From contig CBDCJH010000002.1 of assembly GCA_965217775.1 (NCBI GenBank), positions 1,536,001 to 1,600,000 of the forward strand: a stretch of DNA of 64,000 nt. The letters run 5' to 3'. This document shows positions 1,404 to 55,145 of the stretch, one piece after another. The translations under genes and the position numbers were made by a program. Each line of letters opens with the position of its first letter. The stretch's first letter is position 1. The notes under the pieces are model-generated. The model was not told the DNA's origin. It searched no databases and worked only from the letters and a program-made list of their open reading frames with translations. The stretch is from Acidobacteriota bacterium. GTDB lineage: Bacteria > Acidobacteriota > UBA6911 > RPQK01 > JAJDTT01.

Positions 1404-2981
1404 ATGAGACATCAAGCAACAACGTGGATCATCGGATGGGCTCTGATGCTGGCGGCCGGATCGGCCGCGTCGGGTGAGGGCGGGGGTGGGGGTCTCGCCG
1501 AAATCGGATCCCGGACTCAGCTTTTCGTGGACGACTACATGATTCAGCACCTGTCCCACGCCCGTCAGGTGCTCAATCCGGCCCAGAAGCACCCGAACAA
1601 TCCCCTCATCTCGGCCGACCGTCCGTGGGAGGGCCATTACCTCGGCCTCAGCCGCGTCTACTACAACGAGGAAGAGGGCGTGTTCAAGATGTGGTACCGG
1701 AGCAACAACGGTTTCAAGGTCAAGAAGGGCACCGCCATCACCGACTACAAGTGGACCGATAAGGGCGTGGTTCGCGAAAAGGTCTGGTCGGCGGAGAGCT
1801 ACGGCTTCGAAGGCAACTCCAACGGCGACGATTGGCTTCCCTGTTTCGCCACCTCACGGGACGGTGTGATCTGGGAGAAGCCCAGTCTCGGGAAGGTGGA
1901 ATTCAACGGCTCGACCCGCAACAACATCCTGCCCGAGGAGAGCCGGGTCCCCACCTTCCGGGACCCCAACGCCACCGATCCGAACAAGCGGTACGTCAAC
2001 CTCGGCACCCGTCGCGGCCCCTCCGGACAGCCGGGGTTCATGCTGGACCTGTACCACTCGCCCGACGGGTTCAACTGGACGCCCTACGAGAACAACCCGG
2101 TCCTGGACACCTCTCCGGTGCCGGGACGTTGGGGACCCACCGTGTTCATGGGATGGGATCCCATCCGCAAGGTGTACGCCGCCCACATCGAGAGCTGCAT
2201 CCACCGCGCGTGTCCGCTGGGGAAACGGCTCATCGGCCGGGCCGAGAGTCCCGACCTGATCAATTGGGGCCGGGACCAATTGATCGTCCTGCCCGACGAG
2301 CTGGACCCGCCCGACACCGAGTTCTACGCCATGGCTTCGTTCGACTACGACGGGATCTACCTGTCCATCATCGAGATCTTCCGGACCACCAACACCTGGC
2401 ATTACCCCGAGCTGGCCATGAGCCGCGACGGACTCCACTACGAGCGCAACTACCGGGAACCCTTCATCCGGCTGGGAGACTTCGGGGACTTCGACGAATC
2501 CACCGTCTACGTCTTCCAGGCTCCCATCGTCCACAAGGACAAGGTCCTGGTTTACTACTACGGCGGGAACTGGCGCGGCGCCGATGTGTTGCACGAGAAG
2601 GGTGACAAGGGCATCTTCGCCATCGGTCTGGCCACCGTGCCCCGGGACGGTTTCGTCTCGGTGGACGCCGGCAAGCTCCATCCCGGACGCCTGGTGACCC
2701 GGCCCTTCAGCTTCCAGGGAGGCGGCCTCTACGTGACCATGGAGGCGGCAAAGCACAACTGGGGCTCCGGCGTTCCCGATCTTCGGGTGGAGATCCTGGA
2801 CTCGAACCAGCGTCCGATTCCGGGCTTCACCATGGAGGACTCCGATCCGGTCCGGACCAGCGGCCGTCACCGCATGAGCTGGCAGGGAAGGAAAGACGTG
2901 GGAGGACTGGAGGGCACGGCCGTCCAGCTCAGGTTCCACTTCAAGAACACCAAGCTCTTCTCGTTCCAGTTCCAGCCCTAG
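1404..2981 (+). CDS. Secreted beta-propeller glycoside-hydrolase-like protein (GH32/GH43-like fold)
   Basis: Signal peptide; QLFVDDY; repeated Asp-box-like SxDGxxW motifs (SRDGVIW, SPDGFNW, SPDLINW); C-terminal RDGFVSV...LRF...LFSFQF. Confidence 0.65.
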   Translation: MRHQATTWIIGWALMLAAGSAASGEGGGGGLAEIGSRTQLFVDDYMIQHLSHARQVLNPAQKHPNNPLISADRPWEGHYLGLSRVYYNEEEGVFKMWYRSNNGFKVKKGTAITDYKWTDKGVVREKVWSAESYGFEGNSNGDDWLPCFATSRDGVIWEKPSLGKVEFNGSTRNNILPEESRVPTFRDPNATDPNKRYVNLGTRRGPSGQPGFMLDLYHSPDGFNWTPYENNPVLDTSPVPGRWGPTVFMGWDPIRKVYAAHIESCIHRACPLGKRLIGRAESPDLINWGRDQLIVLPDELDPPDTEFYAMASFDYDGIYLSIIEIFRTTNTWHYPELAMSRDGLHYERNYREPFIRLGDFGDFDESTVYVFQAPIVHKDKVLVYYYGGNWRGADVLHEKGDKGIFAIGLATVPRDGFVSVDAGKLHPGRLVTRPFSFQGGGLYVTMEAAKHNWGSGVPDLRVEILDSNQRPIPGFTMEDSDPVRTSGRHRMSWQGRKDVGGLEGTAVQLRFHFKNTKLFSFQFQP

Positions 2982-3158
2982 GAGCGGCGACCTTCTAGTC
3001 GCCGACGCCGGGCGGTTTTTCGTAGGGGCGACCCTTGTGGTCGCCCGCCGCAAGCCGGCAAAGCTGCTCCGCCGGTGGTTCCTGGGTTCCTGGCAAAGGG
3101 CTTGGTAGCGGTTTCGCCTGCAGCGACGAAAGAGGGCGCCCACAAGGGGCGCCCCTAC
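2981..3158. repeat. Composite REP cluster: one GGAG-type palindrome plus an inverted pair of GTAG-type REPs (REPIN/BIME-like)
   Basis: GGAGCGGCGACCTTCTAGTCGCCGA (2981-3005); GTAGGGGCGACCCTTGTGGTCGCCC (3022-3046); inverted copy at 3131-3158. Confidence 0.8.
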
Positions 3159-3192
3159 GGGTTTCTCTGACTCGGATGGCACGAACGGACGC

Positions 3193-6100
3193 ATGGCAAA
3201 GGATGCAAAGGCCGGTCTCAAGTTCCTGCTGATCGCCCAGTTCTTCGGAGCTTTCAACGACAACGCCTGGAAACTGATCGTCACCTTCCTGGCGATCAAG
3301 GCTTCGACGGCACACCTGACACCGGGAGGACCCGAGTACCAGTCCGCGGCGCAACTCCAGACCGCCATCGCCTTCTGCGTTCTGACCATTCCACTCATGG
3401 TCTTCTCGCTCCCGGCAGGCCTCGTGGCCGACCGGGTCAGCAAGAGGACCGTCATTATTGCCATGAAGCTGGCAGAGGTCCTGCTCATGGCAGCAGCCGC
3501 ACTCTCGCTCTACGCGGCGCCCGGCTCGACGCTGGCTCCGCTGCTGATTCTCGGGTTCATGGGCCTTCAGAGCGCCCTTTTCAGCCCCGCCAAGTACGGA
3601 ATCCTCCCCGAGATGTTGCCCCATGAGCGGCTCACCGCCGGGAACGCCCACCTGGAAACCTGGACCTTTCTGGCCATCATCCTGGGCACGGCCTCCGGCG
3701 GCCTGCTGCTGGATCTGTCGAGAGAGGCGGCCTGGCTTGCGGCGGCGGTCCTGGTTCCGGCGGCGGTGGTGGGGCTCCTCATCTCCTTGCGGCTTCCCGC
3801 GGTGCCGGCGGCCCGTTCCGAAGGAGACCTGGGAGAAACCATCCGCACGGCATGGCGAGCCATCCGTCAAGAGCGCGTTCTGGGACTGGCCGTAGCCGGG
3901 TCGGTCGTCTACTGGACCATCGCGAGTCTTCTGGGACAGGACATCCTGGTCTACGTCAAGTCGGTGTTGGGGCTTTCCGACACTCATGCGGGGGTCCCTC
4001 TGGCCCTGTTCGGGCTGGGAGTGGGCGGGGGCAGCTTGATCACCGCCCGCCTTTCCCGGGGCAAGGTCGAATACGGCGTGATCCCACTGGGCGCCATCCT
4101 GATGGCAGGGAACTGCCTGCTGTTGGCATGGGTCGTTCCTGGGTTCTACGGCCTGCTGGCTTTTTCGGCCGCCCTGGGCGTGGCCAGCGGCATGATCATC
4201 GTGCCGCTGAACTCCCTGCTTCAATGGCGGGCTCCGGCCCAGCATCGGGGTGCCGTCATCGCGCTGGCCAACGTCTGGATCTTTGCAGGCATAACGGTGG
4301 GATCCCTGGGAGCGGCAGGCCTGGCCGCGCTGGGGCTCTCCCCGGTCTCCATCCTGCTGGTGGCGGCATTGGCGCTCTCGGCGGGAATGTTCTGGGCGGT
4401 CTCCCTGCTTCCCGACGTGCTGCTGCGTCTGCTGCTGGTCCTGGCCACGCACTCCCTGTATCGGCTCCGGGTCGTGGGCCGGGAACAGGTCCCGGAAAAG
4501 GGAGGGGCGCTCCTGGTCCCCAATCACGTCTCCTTCATCGATTTCGTCCTGCTGCTCGCCGTGATCGACCGTCCGATCCGATTTATCGTTCATCGAGAAT
4601 ACTATGAACGTTTCTACTTCAAGCCCTTTATGAAGTCGTTGGGGTGTATTCCCATCTCCTCCTCGGAGGGTCCTCGGGAGATTCTGAGAGCACTGCGGAA
4701 CGCCGGGAAACGGCTGGACCAGGGTGAGCTGGTCTGTATCTTTCCGGAGGGTCAGATCAGCCGAACCGGCACTCTGCTGCCCTTCAACCGGGGCCTGGAG
4801 CGGATCGTGAGGAAGCGGCAGGCACCCATCATTCCCGTCTACCTGGACCAACTCTGGGGGAGCATCTTCAGTTACGAGCGAAACCGGTTCGTCTTCAAGA
4901 TTCCGCGGGAGATCCCCTACCAGGTCACTCTGGCCTTCGGCGCCCCGTTGCCTTCGAAAACCAACGTGGGAACGATCCGCCAAGCTGTCCAGGAGCTGTC
5001 CTGTGCCGCGTGGAACCGCCGTCAGGAGGGTGTTCGTCCCTTGCACCGGGCCTTCGTGCGCAGGGCCAGGACGCGTCCGCTGGCTCTCGCCTATGCCGAG
5101 GAAAGCCGGCCGCGTCTGAACCGCATCAAGGCCCTGACCGGAGCCGTGGCCCTTGCCCGGGCGCTGAAATCGGAATGGGCCGGACAGGAGAGAGTCGGGA
5201 TACTACTGCCACCCACCGTCGCTGCGGCCCTGATGAATCTGGCCTCGGCCCTGGCCTGCAGGGTGACCGTCAACCTGAACTACACCGCAGGCTGGCGCGG
5301 GATGGAGTCGGCCGTGGAACAAGCGGGTCTCAAGACCGTCGTCACCAGCCGCACGTTTCTGCAGAAGGCGGACCTGACCCCTCCCGGAAACGTCCGGCTC
5401 ATCTATCTGGAGGAGCTGGCCGAAGGCATCGGCGCCGGACTTCGAACCTCCAGCCTGGCGGCGGCTCTTCTGCTTCCCTCCCGCTGGTTGGAAAAGCTGT
5501 GCGGAGCCACCCGGGTCCCCGGCCCTCAGGACCTCATGACCATCATCTTCAGCAGCGGAAGCACGGGCAATCCCAAGGGGGTGATGCTGACCCAGTTCAA
5601 CCTGGATTCCAACATCGCCGCCGTCGATCAGGTGCTCCGGACGCAACCGGCGGACCGGGTCCTGGGCATCCTGCCCTTCTTCCATTCCTTCGGCTACATG
5701 GTCTTCTGGTTCGCGGCCAAGAAGGGGTTGGCTCTGCCCCTGCATCCCAATCCGCGGGACGGTCCGGCGGTCGGCCGGCTGGTGGAGCGCTACCGGGTGA
5801 GCATCATGCCGGCCACGCCGACCTTCCTTCGGACCTACATGCGTTTGTGCTCTCCAGGCCAACTCGGATCGGTGCGGTTGTTGTTGACCGGCGCGGAGAA
5901 GCTGCCGGAAAAGCTGGCAGCGGCCTTCCAGGAGCAATTCGGCCTGCGGCCGTTGGAGGGTTACGGGACCACAGAATGCGCGCCCGTAGTATCCGTGGGC
6001 GTCCCCGACTACCGGGCTCCCGGATTCTTCCAGGCCGGCTCGCGGCCGGGTCACGTGGGCCAGCCCCTGCCGGGCGTGGCGGTGCGGGTGGTGGACCCCG

Positions 6101-31324: not shown

Positions 31325-31521
31325 CTCAATAGAACAGGTTATGGGCAACAACGGAATGAATTCAACAGATTCCGGCGGATTTTCCGGTTCCCGGAGATTT
31401 GTGGGAATGGTTGCTCAGCGGGGGCGGGCGAAGGTACCGGCATCTCAGTCAGGCACTATTTCGACATATAAAGCACTGAATAATCTGGGGGATTATATAC
31501 GAAAGTGCCCAAACCTGAGCA

Positions 31522-31704
31522 TTAACGCCGGTTCCGTGGCCGGTCTATCCATCTGATATTCACGGGCTGGACCAATGCACGGGCCAGCTCCTCGAAGTCT
31601 GCTTCCACGCGCATATCCTGTTCCAGTTCGGCCTTGGTCGGTTGGTAGGAATCCTTGACCAGTTCGATGGTGGGATGTTGGGGATTGTGTCTGGGTTTCT
31701 TCAT
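31522..31704 (-). CDS. Small hypothetical passenger protein (60 aa) of the IS1595 element
   Basis: ATGA-coupled to the upstream passenger; ends just inside the TIR; SYQPTKAELEQD motif. Confidence 0.6.
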   Translation of the reverse strand: MKKPRHNPQHPTIELVKDSYQPTKAELEQDMRVEADFEELARALVQPVNIRWIDRPRNRR

Positions 31705-32206
31705 GCGGCCCTCGGCATCCTAGGTTGTTTCCCCTCAAAGGAGTCTTCCGCCGTGTAGATTTGAATCTTGGGCAGGTCCATGAAGCGTCCGGCGTTGACG
31801 GCGGCATTTCTCATGCCGTTGGTCACTCGGTCTCGAAAGCAGGTGAAGATGCCGAGATCAGCTCCGGCCTGTCGACGTGCGCCGTTGAAGGCTTGGACGT
31901 GTCCAGGATTGGTAGAGCCGCCTTTGACCTGAGAAACGATGTCAATGAACCGGCCCTGGCGGATCGGGAGCCGTCCCACGCCGTCAATTCCGCCATCCCG
32001 TCTCTGGATTCGGTTCGGCTCCATACCCTCCACCAGAGCAGCAGCCCACCTCTCAAACCGGAATTTATCGATGCTGGCAAGCTCCTGAGCGTGTGTGATG
32101 GTATGGGGAAGGCCAATGTCTTGGGTGTGTTCCCAACGGATTCATCCGGGACATCCTCCCGCATGACTTCAAGGTGGTCTCCAAAGCTCAGTCGATTTTC
32201 GTTCAA
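31701..32206 (-). pseudogene. Internally deleted DNA methyltransferase / Mrr-like endonuclease fusion (passenger)
   Basis: N-terminus NRLSFGDHLEVMREDVPDESV (beta-class MTase start) joined out of frame near 32135 to …AQELASIDKFRFERWAAALVEG…DGGIDG…SQVKGG; MTase core absent. Confidence 0.7.
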
Positions 32207-33153
32207 CCCACCAAATCCTTGTAACGCAGCCGCTTTCCCACCATCCGGTCAGCGACCAGGGCCATTTGATCCAACGTGTCCATGCGCCTTAGGTTGTGAC
32301 GTGCGGCAAACTCTCCAACGTATCGGTCGGTGTGCTGTTCCGAGAAGTGGTGAAAGGTTCCGTGGTAACTCCGCTTCAACATCGACCAGAACGATTCGGC
32401 TCCGTTGGTGTGGCAGTTGCCTTTGACGTACTCCTGAAGAGAATGCTTGACCGTCTCGTGATTGACAAGCCGGCCGTAAGAGGTTGAATCGTCGGTGTAG
32501 ATCTTGGCATCTTCTCCCACGTGCTCCAAGACGAAACGGGAGAGGGTTTCAGACTTGGTGTCAGGGACGACTCGGGCCGACACTTGGTTGGAGGGGCGAT
32601 CTTTGACGGCAGCCACGGCCGTCTTTCCAACGGCTCCACGTCCCTCCAGTTTGGCGCGTTTGGCCTTTGGCATATTCTTCCGCTTTCCGCCGAGATACGC
32701 CTCGTCAGCCTCGACCGGGCCGGAGAACAGGGCCATTCCAGTCAGGTTCAGACCTTTCCGTATCCGGTGAGCAAGGTGCCAAGCCGTCTTCTGTGTTACG
32801 TCCAGGTCACGATGCAGCTTCATGGAGGAAACGCTCTTGAGGCTGGTAGTAAGGAGGTAGGTCGCAAGCAACCAAGTCTGATAGCCGAGTTTGGAGGACT
32901 GCATAACCGTCCCGACCCGGACGCTGAACCGCTTGCCGCAATCGCGGCAACGATACGGCATGGAAGGATGCTTGGCTCCGGTCTGGACGTTGGTGGAGCC
33001 GCAATGGACGCAACAGACTTCCTCCGGCCACCGCCGCTTTATGAACCATTCCTCAGCGGCTTTATCGTCGGGAAATCTCTTGAAGAATCCGCGCAGTGAA
33101 AGTCCCTCTCGGAACGCCTTGCCGGGTGCCTTGTTCCGTGTCTCGTAACTCAT
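32203..33153 (-). CDS. IS1595-family DDE transposase with N-terminal zinc ribbon
   Basis: CVHCGS…YRCRDC, QKTAWHLAHRIR, GPVEADEAYLGG, IYTDD, HTNGAESFWSMLKR; AGGAGG RBS before ATG 33153. Confidence 0.95.
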   Translation of the reverse strand: MSYETRNKAPGKAFREGLSLRGFFKRFPDDKAAEEWFIKRRWPEEVCCVHCGSTNVQTGAKHPSMPYRCRDCGKRFSVRVGTVMQSSKLGYQTWLLATYLLTTSLKSVSSMKLHRDLDVTQKTAWHLAHRIRKGLNLTGMALFSGPVEADEAYLGGKRKNMPKAKRAKLEGRGAVGKTAVAAVKDRPSNQVSARVVPDTKSETLSRFVLEHVGEDAKIYTDDSTSYGRLVNHETVKHSLQEYVKGNCHTNGAESFWSMLKRSYHGTFHHFSEQHTDRYVGEFAARHNLRRMDTLDQMALVADRMVGKRLRYKDLVG

Positions 33154-33178
33154 TGTATCCTCCTGACTTACAAGACAT

Positions 33179-33207
33179 ATTATATAGGAAAGTACCGGGA
33201 TTGTCAA
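33179..33207 (-). promoter_or_regulatory. Consensus sigma70 promoter of the IS1595 transposase
   Basis: Minus strand reads TTGACA-17 nt-TATAAT. Confidence 0.85.
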
Positions 33208-33277
33208 CCCCTACGGGCAACCTTTTCGGCACTTTCGTATATAATCCCCATAATCTGAATGACAACATTTTATTCAA

Positions 33278-53760: not shown

Positions 53761-53793
53761 GCGGGTTCCTTCCTCCGAACGGACTTATGGAAT

Positions 53794-55037
53794 GGGGCTT
53801 ATATTCCTAAGTGCCCTTGGCATACAGTTCTGGCACCACGCTTTCCCCAACGAGATACGTTCCGGTACCCAGGGCAAGAACCCCAGCCCTGTGAATGTTC
53901 AGGGCGGCATTGTGGTCCCTGTCCATTCTAAGTCCGCAGGCCCTGCACCGGAAGGTTTCGCTCCGCCCTGGATCGTGGCGGGCGCCGCACCGGTGGCAGT
54001 CCTGCGATGTATATGCGGGATTCACTTCTACGAACTCCCGACCGGCCCATTCTGCCTTATACTGGAGTTGATTCCGCAGAAGCCCCCATGATTGCGTCAT
54101 TATTTCTCGATTCAGCCCCTTCTTCTTCGAGCCCTTCGTTACCATCCCTTGGATGTTCAGCTTCTCCACAGCGATCAGACCGTGCTCACGAATGATCCTG
54201 CTGGAGAGACGATGGCAGGCATTACGGTTTCGGACCGCTTCCCGGTGACGGAGCCGAGATAGCTGTACGATCCGCTTCCGTCTGGTCTTGGAAGTCTTCG
54301 TGCACCTGGAGACCTTTCTCTGCTGCTTTCGGATCCCCGCCCAGTCCCGTCGATTCCGTTCGATCCTCTCACCCGTGGACAGCACCGCTCGCTTGCGGAC
54401 TCCCAGGTCGATCCCTACCGAAGACTCGCATTTCGGTAGCGGCGGCTTCTCCACCTCGTAGGTCAGGTCCACATACACCCGGTTCGGCTTGCGGACGATC
54501 CGCATCACCTTCAACGGGCATCCGTCCGGCAACGGCCGGGACGGAAAGATCCGGATCGTCGGGAAGCCCTTGGGCCGGATGGCGTAGCCCCGAGCCCGCT
54601 TCTTCACCATCGTCGCCTTGGGGTCGACGACGTCGATGGTCTCCATCCTCGCCAGGGGCCGGAACCGAGGATACCCCGGCTTCTCCCCCGCCTTGCAGCG
54701 ACGGAAGAACGCCTTGAAGGCCCGGTCCAACCGCATCAACATCCCACGCTCCGCCTTGACCGCCACCGACCCGAGCCCCTCCGGATCGTCCTTCCTCTGG
54801 GAGGTCAACCCCTTCATCTGATCGTACAGGGTCACACCGTGTTCCTCGGATTCCCAGGCCGTCCTGCGTTCCTCCAGTGCAGCGTTGTACAGCCGATTCA
54901 GGATGGACCTCACCCGGTCCAACCGCCGGATTCCACCCTTGGACAGCTTGGCTCTGCACTGGATAGTTGCGTGGACTTTCATGGTAGGAATCGTAACCCA
55001 TCAGCCTGAATTCTCGGCACTTACATATATAATCCCC
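53794..55037 (-). mobile_element. Non-autonomous IS1595-ended cassette carrying only tnpB
   Basis: Inverted ends GGGGCTTATATTCCTAAGTGCC (53794-53815) and GGCACTTACATATATAATCCCC (55016-55037); flanks TATGGAAT (53786-53793) and TATAGAAT (55038-55045); ends match the IS1595 TIR at 18/22 and 20/22. Confidence 0.85.
53807..54982 (-). CDS. tnpB: RNA-guided endonuclease TnpB
   Basis: LYNAALEERR, GYPRFR, RuvC-I VGIDLG, RuvC-II IAVEKL, YTSQDCHRCG…CRACG zinc finger, RuvC-III DRDHNAALNI. Confidence 0.95.
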   Translation of the reverse strand: MKVHATIQCRAKLSKGGIRRLDRVRSILNRLYNAALEERRTAWESEEHGVTLYDQMKGLTSQRKDDPEGLGSVAVKAERGMLMRLDRAFKAFFRRCKAGEKPGYPRFRPLARMETIDVVDPKATMVKKRARGYAIRPKGFPTIRIFPSRPLPDGCPLKVMRIVRKPNRVYVDLTYEVEKPPLPKCESSVGIDLGVRKRAVLSTGERIERNRRDWAGIRKQQRKVSRCTKTSKTRRKRIVQLSRLRHREAVRNRNACHRLSSRIIREHGLIAVEKLNIQGMVTKGSKKKGLNREIMTQSWGLLRNQLQYKAEWAGREFVEVNPAYTSQDCHRCGARHDPGRSETFRCRACGLRMDRDHNAALNIHRAGVLALGTGTYLVGESVVPELYAKGT

Positions 55038-55145
55038 TATAGAATCCTGTCGGCTCCGGACATTCTGTCCTTCCCGGCGGAAGGACGCAACGAGGAGACT
55101 TGACCAGGGTTCTGGGGTAGCCGTTCCCAAGCATGCATCACAGGA

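Follow-up and report, generated by a model that had tools for sequence, protein, structure and literature searches.

Cas12 nucleases descend from TnpB and its eukaryotic relatives, the Fanzors, which are under development as compact tools for genome editing. To our knowledge, how they help their host transposons is understood in detail only for IS605 and IS607, neither of which duplicates its target. The target-adjacent motif (TAM) of an IS605-type TnpB corresponds to the target of the TnpA transposase, such as TTGAT; IS607 elements possess a serine recombinase TnpA and GG termini and make no duplication, either. Insertion sequences (IS) of the IS1595 family are the prokaryotic kin of Merlin. 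In our study we analysed a tnpB gene enclosed by terminal inverted repeats (TIRs) of the IS1595 type. It is located in a stretch of 64,000 nucleotides from the genome of an uncultured member of the Acidobacteriota (contig CBDCJH010000002.1, positions 1,536,001 to 1,600,000), referred to below as the window.

Associations of TnpB with DDE transposases have been described before. The main text of Altae-Tran et al. (2023, PNAS) reports six DDE-associated TnpB branches (DDE-1 to DDE-6) with inverted terminal repeats, naming IS630 for DDE-6, as well as solo TnpBs which are bounded by the ends of such elements and described as 'mobilized by transposases in trans' (PMC10691335). The main text of the review by Kojima (2026) lists ISL2, IS630 and IS1031 as partners and calls TnpB-DDE associations rare (PMC13565253); according to the main texts of both papers, the mechanism behind these prokaryotic links is not understood. 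IS1595 is named in neither main text (PMC10691335, PMC13565253), and one of the branches DDE-1 to DDE-5 may already be this family. A literature search for TnpB and IS1595 gave no paper on such a link, judged at the level of the listed entries, and a search for TnpB and ISXO2 gave no match. In the relevant part of Bao and Jurka (2013), Merlin or IS1595 is not among the superfamilies that captured Fanzors (PMC3627910). The closest precedent for the guide model discussed below is found in the main text of Yoon et al. (2023): elements other than IS605 incorporate the nucleotide next to the insertion, or the duplication, into their right-end element RNA (reRNA; PMC10711439). Elements of the IS1595 family are characterized, as far as the relevant part of the cited source goes, by TIRs starting with GG and by 8-bp target duplications (PMC8101967).

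An earlier note on the window had implied that the arrangement was novel as such. DDE-borne TnpBs mobilised in trans are already on record in the main text cited above (PMC10691335), but the IS1595 partner appears to be new. The same appears to apply to the clean anatomy, in which an autonomous family and a non-autonomous one are accompanied by empty sites and the assemblies are closed or nearly so, to a predicted omegaRNA sharing the inverted repeat, and to a TAM-like, orientation-specific signature at the insertion sites.

The TnpB unit, its copies and its empty sites

The unit comprises 1244 bp on the minus strand (53794-55037). Its boundaries are set by inverted ends and recur in 13 units of the genome. 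The sole long open reading frame (ORF) is tnpB (53807-54982, minus strand), encoding a predicted RNA-guided RuvC nuclease of 391 aa. The tnpB-proximal 5' TIR (55016-55037, minus strand, GGGGATTATATATGTAAGTGCC) is identical at 20/22 positions to the end of an IS1595 element at 31488-33249, the consensus of the other copies at 21/22. The 3' TIR (53794-53815, plus strand, GGGGCTTATATTCCTAAGTGCC), which is also the 3' end of the predicted omegaRNA scaffold, agrees with the IS1595 end at 18/22 positions. Only 33 bp separate the 5' TIR from the ATG, and the stop codon (53807-53809) falls within the 3' TIR. The unit is flanked by an 8-bp target-site duplication, TATGGAAT (ATTCCATA in tnpB sense) on the 3' side of tnpB (53786-53793) and TATAGAAT on the 5' side (55038-55045), with 7/8 bases matching. 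The 5'-side 8-mer is the mutated copy with one exchange; empty sites carry TATGGAAT or CATGGAAT once.

These coordinates, ends and distances, the 7/8 duplication and both end identities had been given in the earlier note and agree with the sequence as we read it. This does not apply to base 23, which had been described as end-specific in both elements. In the autonomous IS this feature is peculiar to the window copy, since the other 10 of the 11 autonomous copies have G at this position at both ends. A degenerate pattern of the ends occurs at exactly four sites in the 64 kb, namely both ends of the TnpB unit and both ends of the IS1595 element. The expectation from shuffled sequences is 0.01, and none of 100 shuffles reached four sites.

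In a Pfam scan, TnpB matched OrfB_IS605 (PF01385, 1.1e-17) and the zinc ribbon Cas12f1-like_TNB (PF07282, 3e-26), both above the cut-offs. The protein aligns end to end with ISDra2 TnpB (8BF8/8EXA, E=4.5e-32), and its motifs GIDLGV, AVEKL and DRDHNAALNI as well as both CxxC pairs match those of ISDra2 TnpB. We take these to be the catalytic (RuvC D-E-D) and zinc (C4) positions. Thereby all three RuvC acidic residues and the four zinc cysteines recognised earlier from the window alone find their counterparts in the ISDra2 motifs. Homology and the covariation described below indicate that TnpB is likely to be a working RNA-guided nuclease whose omegaRNA would be processed out of the final ~250 nt of the tnpB transcript.

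The two ORFs neighbouring the unit, which were scanned against Pfam, encode a hexapeptide transferase and an FAD oxidoreductase; neither is a tnpA. No serine recombinase is present in the ORF list of the unit. With TIRs and 8-bp duplications, the unit corresponds neither to IS200/IS605 nor to IS607. An IS1595 transposase of its own is absent from the unit, which is therefore a non-autonomous derivative and not an IS in its own right.

The genome containing the window (G000) comprises 6.43 Mb in two contigs, C2 and the 144-kb contig C1. It harbours 18 matches to TnpB, ten of them full-length and open at 93-100% identity. A fuzzy search with the end sequences gave 39 sites pairing into 19 elements, i.e. 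11 TnpB units and eight transposase-bearing IS1595-like elements; 15 of these 19 end pairs have 8/8 duplications. Nine of the 11 TnpB units measure exactly 1244 bp, the remaining two 1265 and 1406 bp. A twelfth TnpB unit shows a 1-bp deletion in one end and a thirteenth represents a second subfamily. All 13 units occupy different sites. Perfect 8-bp duplications were found at 11 of them, 7/8 at the window copy and 3/8 at C2:1186780. The earlier note had suggested looking for additional copies that are bounded in the same way but lie in other flanks between 8-bp duplications; such copies are present, and the case of a single TIR-bounded copy was not seen. A blastn search of the genome with element heads and tails for stand-alone omegaRNA-only or MITE-like (miniature inverted-repeat transposable element) copies found only the known units, partial copies and one fragment of 53 nt.

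Two of the copies deserve mention in their own right. The unit at G000:C2:1186780-1188023 has intact ends with unrelated 8-mers on either side (AATGGATT and AAACATAT in tnpB sense), as would follow from recombination between two copies, i.e. a rearrangement mediated by the family. An intact unit at G000:C1:22575-23818 resides on the 144-kb second contig, possibly a plasmid, which could help the family to pass from strain to strain.

The orthologous intergenic region was found in seven of eight other species of the genus. In the sister species G008 the locus reads GGACT-CATGGAAT-CCTGTCGG, with a single 8-mer and both flanks continuous exactly at the predicted boundaries. The empty site is read from G008 only, the remaining species being too diverged at the locus to be read likewise. 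Furthermore, a contig in the public run X1 bridges 53789 to 55042 and skips 1252 bp, corresponding to the 1244-bp unit plus one 8-mer. An empty allele with one 8-mer, as anticipated earlier, is accordingly found in the DNA of G008 and in this bridging contig. Contigs of four public runs end at the element boundary and then run into other flanks, representing further copies elsewhere.

Our best explanation is that 53794-55037 in the window is one copy of a family of non-autonomous transposons with IS1595-family TIRs and an intact tnpB as the only gene. Considered as a whole, i.e. identity, movement, omegaRNA and guide/TAM together, we hold this explanation with good confidence.

The partner IS1595 and the relatives of TnpB

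The autonomous IS1595-family element of the window is 1762 bp in length (31488-33249, minus strand). It possesses perfect 22-bp ends (31488-31509 and 33228-33249) of the sequence GGGGATTATATACGAAAGTGCC and an 8-bp duplication (ATAATCTG), the same length as in the TnpB units. Its DDE transposase gene (32203-33207, minus strand) matches DDE_Tnp_IS1595 (PF12762) at 1.8e-38; the match to Zn_ribbon_IS1595 (PF12760) reaches 24.5 bits and lies just below the cut-off of 25.4 bits. The consensus 5' end of the TnpB units differs from the IS end at one base (21/22), their 3' end at three. The similarity stops about 25 nt into the elements, so that IS and TnpB unit have only their ends in common. TIRs starting with GG (here GGGG) and 8-bp duplications, both traits of the IS1595 family, are found in the autonomous IS as well as in the TnpB unit, and the IS carries the DDE_Tnp_IS1595 domain, too. 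The 1762-bp IS occurs in five copies in the window genome (99.3-100% identical). In G006, the other genome with full-length units of subfamily A, the transposase gene was found eight times, with identities of 98-99%.

The DDE transposase of the 1762-bp IS would bind the 22-26-bp ends, move the TnpB unit in trans and thereby make the 8-bp duplications. Near-identical ends, equal duplication length and co-presence in both subfamily A genomes make it highly probable that an IS1595-type DDE transposase of the same genome mobilises the TnpB units. The earlier note had proposed a non-autonomous IS1595-TnpB element moved in trans. The element, its copies, its ends and the partner IS were all found; its movement in trans is what we infer from sequence comparison.

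The autonomous IS has about 700 bp downstream of its transposase gene with a passenger gene kept in all 1762-bp copies. This ORF (31701-32033, minus strand, 110 aa) is restriction-endonuclease-like (NA-iREase1 2.2e-7, Mrr_cat 2.2e-4). A second ORF inside the IS (31522-31704, 60 aa) gave no domain match. An IS1595-like element of 4449 bp at G000:C2:321834-326282 has the ends GGGGATTACTAACAATAGTGCC and a 6/8 duplication. Its transposase match shows 46% identity and contains a TGA, and its size is enough for several passengers.

TnpB (E up to 1e-20) is present in five of eight other species of the genus and was detected in none of 32 sampled genomes of other genera from the same family and order. 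The genomes of these relatives are metagenome-assembled genomes (MAGs) of Acidobacteriota. The clade within the genus (72-100% identity) consists of about seven subfamilies. From the five other species, 15 loci with 72-94% protein identity were examined, and 13 of them have recognisable ends on both sides. The ends begin with GGGG(A/C)TTATA or GGGAATTATA, and their inner halves vary between subfamilies. Nine of the 13 two-ended loci show 8/8 and two show 7/8 duplications; in L012 and L013 the left end is degenerate. Every relative with at least 69% identity and both junctions examined has TIR-type ends. Close homologs with IS605 or IS607 ends, named in the earlier note as a case against its proposal, were not seen among them. 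The ratio of nonsynonymous to synonymous substitutions (dN/dS) between subfamilies is 0.11-0.24 at dS values of up to about 1.6, indicating that the nuclease gene was kept functional over a long stay inside IS1595-type ends.

The nearest relative outside the genus, L044, is found on a SAR202 (Chloroflexota) MAG contig (locus ~2381-3762) and shows 45% identity. It has different inverted ends of 17-19 bp (GAGACGATTTCACAAAT...) and a 7- or 8-bp duplication (TGTGTAT), and is probably another DDE-borne solo TnpB. The relatives L053 and L151 (35-37% identity) have TIRs flanked by TA and an IS630-like look. Among 148 flanking ORFs of 49 relatives with 26-45% identity, a Y1 (IS200-like) TnpA adjoins TnpB at seven loci, and neither a serine recombinase nor a DDE transposase was found. 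The Y1-linked relatives show only 32-40% identity and are located on the other side of a well-supported branch. A scan of a metagenome collection gave no relative above 46% identity and hence no extra insertion sites.

A maximum likelihood tree of 57 proteins was calculated (LG+G4, branch support by the Shimodaira-Hasegawa-like approximate likelihood ratio test (SH-aLRT) only, midpoint root for drawing). Therein the seven IS1595-ended subfamilies form a single branch (support 100) with L044 as sister (99). Both lie within a side of 14 rows (100) that takes in all TIR-ended relatives; the seven Y1-linked ones are all placed outside it. Some long branches were flagged, and the deeper order is provisional. 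The earlier note had suggested a TnpB tree to test whether a clade is consistently IS1595-ended; the association is clade-wide, seven subfamilies sharing it within one monophyletic clade. A degraded copy of subfamily B at G000:C2:4150407-4150864 and the full copy L021 in G006 have a common 3' flank (AGGTAGCTTGC...), as if the two species had inherited one ancient insertion.

The 3' end of the unit and its insertion junctions

The last 280 nt of 15 elements were aligned and a consensus structure was calculated with RNAalifold. This places a predicted omegaRNA scaffold in the last ~250-280 nt of the element (53794-54073, minus strand), its 5' limit being uncertain. The consensus contains 59 pairs, with 98.4% of the cells paired compared to 36-48% if partners were slid by 1-3 columns. 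Thirteen pairs change on both sides (2-5 in the slid controls), and the covariation score was reached by none of 500 shuffles. The compensatory changes sit in helices 9-12. In the covarying helix 12, GUAUG near the stop codon pairs with positions 8-12 of the 3' repeat, and the terminal CCC (positions 2-4 of the repeat) pairs with an invariant GGG ~250 nt upstream.

Three independent signals point to an extra constraint on the 3' part of the unit. Synonymous codon identity between subfamilies amounts to ~0.45-0.6 in most of the gene but to 0.66-0.80 in codons 271-321 and to 0.64-0.84 in codons 351-391, rising near the 3' end of tnpB even where amino-acid identity drops. The dS is lower in the last 118 codons for most subfamily pairs. 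Furthermore, the number of variable sites per 100 nt among nine full-length copies falls from 9-16 to 3-6 toward the 3' end. On the basis of the modelled structure, a functional omegaRNA probably exists at the 3' end of the unit. We read its scaffold as running to the last base of the element, as in IS605, in which case the 3' repeat would serve transposase and RNA alike.

Contigs from size-fractionated metatranscriptome runs map to the same region. A contig of 255 nt in run X5 (depth 1897) and one of 216 nt in run X7 (depth 428) both lie on 53857-53929, other pieces on the element having depths of 3-31. Both match the 3' portion of a related tnpB, and the end of the contigs that does not align is similar to the 3' tail found in subfamilies B-D. 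They may represent abundant omegaRNA; as assembled contigs they show neither RNA ends nor strand or level, and contig depth, which cannot rank gene parts, was not counted as evidence.

The insertion junctions were tallied with each unit oriented by tnpB and each autonomous IS oriented by its transposase gene. For the latter, 11 of 12 loci were used, one being dropped as no end was found. The base in front of the left duplication (-1) is G in 24 of 26 TnpB units (exceptions L037 and L021) but only in 4/11 autonomous IS (Fisher p = 9e-4). The genome-wide chance of G before A-W-W is 0.455, giving a binomial p = 6e-7 for the TnpB units. The first duplicated base (+1) is A in 24/26 units (exceptions L014 and L021) and in 6/11 autonomous IS, and bases 2-3 of the duplication are almost always A or T in the units. 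Immediately beyond the 3' end, A is found in 29/30 junctions (exception L025; one pair is orthologous). The mirrored position after the right duplication (+9) is C in 10/26 units, near background; on an earlier tally of 8/19 the test gave p = 0.21. Among the autonomous IS with G-A sites both orientations are equally represented. Since the ends of subfamilies B and C are symmetric, end asymmetry cannot explain the bias at -1. IS607-type ancestry, with its GGG TAM (reRNA paper cited above, main text, PMC10711439), was considered as a source of the G signal but is not supported. The RuvC-II glutamate of TnpB is the canonical one, and the flanking ORFs of relatives gave seven cases of a Y1 TnpA and no serine recombinase.

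The simplest reading suggested by the G at -1 is a TAM adjoining a guide of duplication plus flank. In the window the candidate TAM is GG in tnpB sense, directly 5' of the duplication (55046-55047, minus strand). The predicted guide consists of the duplication and about 12 nt of flank (53774-53793, minus strand), provided that transcription reads through the 3' end. It is suggested by the scaffold ending at the element boundary and by analogy with the reRNAs of IS605 and Fanzors, as far as described in the main text of the same source (PMC10711439). Read-through past the 3' end would give a guide made up of the duplicated 8-mer and the downstream flank. The nuclease would then recognise the unoccupied site, [..G][8-mer][flank], by a short TAM, i.e. 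a G 5' of the 8-mer or perhaps G followed by A-W-W. The occupied site, having ...CCCC of the repeat before the same sequence, would be spared. Cutting of empty alleles would restore or drive the element, an effect shown for IS605 TnpB, and those insertions lying beside a usable TAM in the right orientation would be retained. We put forward this TAM and guide model tentatively, as plausible though falling a little short of probable. The joint reading goes further and is held with somewhat greater reserve. It is possible that TnpB and omegaRNA were re-engineered for a DDE transposon of the IS1595/Merlin type, the 3' repeat being transposase site and scaffold end at once, the duplication serving as guide seed, and a minimal G or G-A-W-W TAM, placed just outside the left duplication or spanning into it, allowing the nuclease to distinguish empty from occupied sites, so that only insertions in the right orientation beside this TAM would persist.

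A number of observations weigh against these interpretations. For a TnpB, one or two fixed bases would make an unusually short TAM, and the 5' junctions of L037 and L021 lack the G. The TA-flanked, IS630-like relatives have a G in front of the duplication and, symmetrically, a C behind it, indicating that transposase preference alone can impose such bases. Two relatives, L014 and L021, have ends without a matching duplication. The TnpB copies are 95-98.8% identical compared to 99.3-100% for the autonomous IS copies; the present burst of the IS accordingly postdates most TnpB insertions. Among the IS1595 loci examined in G004-G007 there is no exact partner for subfamilies B-G, their ends being loosely similar but not identical. 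As to the RNA, one and the same alignment of related and mostly coding sequences served to derive and to score the structure, a single-sequence fold is only modestly better than shuffles (z = -1.94), and an Rfam scan of the unit (E up to 1) gave only two sub-threshold chance matches. According to the main text of the review cited above, cut-and-paste DDE elements gain little from homing (PMC13565253).

Alternatively it might be that the IS1595 transposase moves the unit and TnpB is mere cargo. In this case there would be neither a flank guide nor homing, the G/A bias would reflect target choice or unrelated selection, and the conserved 3' structure would serve e.g. mRNA stability or transposase binding. 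The symmetric G..C in the TA-flanked relatives and the high chance frequency of G before A-W-W (0.455) fit this explanation. Moreover, cut-and-paste excision already leaves a break repaired from the sister copy (PMC13565253, main text), and the read-through at the 3' end is itself a prediction. However, the autonomous IS with nearly the same ends shows no bias (4/11, orientations alike), the bias of the units follows the orientation of tnpB even in subfamilies with symmetric ends, and C at the mirrored position occurs at about the background rate (10/26). Purifying selection has kept TnpB intact in all seven subfamilies, and the structured region ends exactly at the element boundary, like omegaRNA scaffolds. 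We therefore consider the cargo explanation unlikely, although it is the alternative that fares best.

It is improbable that the units are moved by an enzyme other than that of the 1762-bp IS1595, be it another transposase of this family or an unrecognised one. The genome does contain other IS1595-like elements with ends identical at 17-19/22 positions, the TnpB copies are older than the current autonomous copies, and subfamilies B-G have no exact partner among the loci examined. But by far the best end match is that of the 1762-bp IS (21/22), which is multi-copy in both genomes with full-length subfamily A units. Even the alternative would still be a DDE enzyme of the IS1595 family, given the 8-bp duplications and GGGG termini.

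The capture must have begun with something like a tnpB of the IS605 or IS1341 type landing in a pre-existing IS1595 MITE, and relatives of 32-40% identity adjoin a Y1 TnpA. That the unit is nothing but such a one-off event without evolutionary depth is very improbable and largely refuted. Seven diverged subfamilies (dS up to ~1.6) keep IS1595-type ends which have diverged, too, the clade is monophyletic, and with 33 bp upstream of the ATG and none downstream of the ORF there is no room for the left and right ends of IS605. A domesticated or nuclease-dead regulator like TldR, a kind of exaptation known from work cited in the review (PMC13565253), is hardly credible here, as the RuvC acidic triad and the two CxxC pairs all have their match in ISDra2 TnpB and the gene is multi-copy and mobile with duplications instead of fixed at one locus.

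Significance and comparison with known systems

The family described here makes it testable how RNA-guided homing works with a transposon that duplicates its target. In one small system it brings together closed assemblies (two to a few contigs), intact units in large number, an autonomous partner that matches them, empty sites, an RNA with covariation and a falsifiable prediction of TAM and guide. If our interpretation is true, it would be a prokaryotic, experimentally tractable counterpart of the partnership between Fanzors and TIR transposons, and the first evidence that the TAM of a nuclease shapes which insertions of a DDE transposon survive. The family may further provide a TnpB whose very short TAM of the G type would be of use where GC-rich targets are to be edited.

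The unit resembles the DDE branches described in the main text of Altae-Tran et al. (2023) in that TnpB lies inside symmetrical TIRs common to an element with a DDE transposase, with the 3' end of tnpB near the transposon end (PMC10691335); the TA-flanked relatives L053 and L151 look like the IS630-linked branch of that work. Unlike in those branches, the transposase is never found inside the TnpB unit here, and the duplication is 8 bp long and variable, so that it would serve as guide and not as scaffold. With TIR elements carrying Fanzors, as described in the relevant parts of two sources, the family shares the many non-autonomous, nuclease-only copies and a guide RNA overlapping the TIR (PMC3627910, PMC10711439). 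It differs from them by its bacterial host, by a compact canonical TnpB of 391 aa with the RuvC-II glutamate, collinear with ISDra2, and by IS1595 as the capturing element; Fanzors belong to eukaryotes or giant viruses and have enlarged REC/WED insertions.

Compared to IS200/IS605 elements such as ISDra2, the protein fold and the catalytic motifs are alike, the structured RNA predicted for the 3' part of tnpB would likewise stop with the last base of the element, and the proposed logic places the TAM to the left and the guide to the right of the insertion. Y1 TnpA and hairpin ends are absent, TIRs and 8-bp duplications are found instead, and the candidate TAM is a G. Like IS1595-family IS with passengers and MITEs of this family, as far as covered by the relevant part of the source (Siguier et al. 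2009, as cited in PMC8101967), the units have TIRs starting with GG and 8-bp duplications and would obtain their transposase from full-length copies. Unlike the passengers of these IS, the passenger here is a predicted RNA-guided nuclease whose predicted RNA shares the sequence of the TIR, carried in a unit without transposase.

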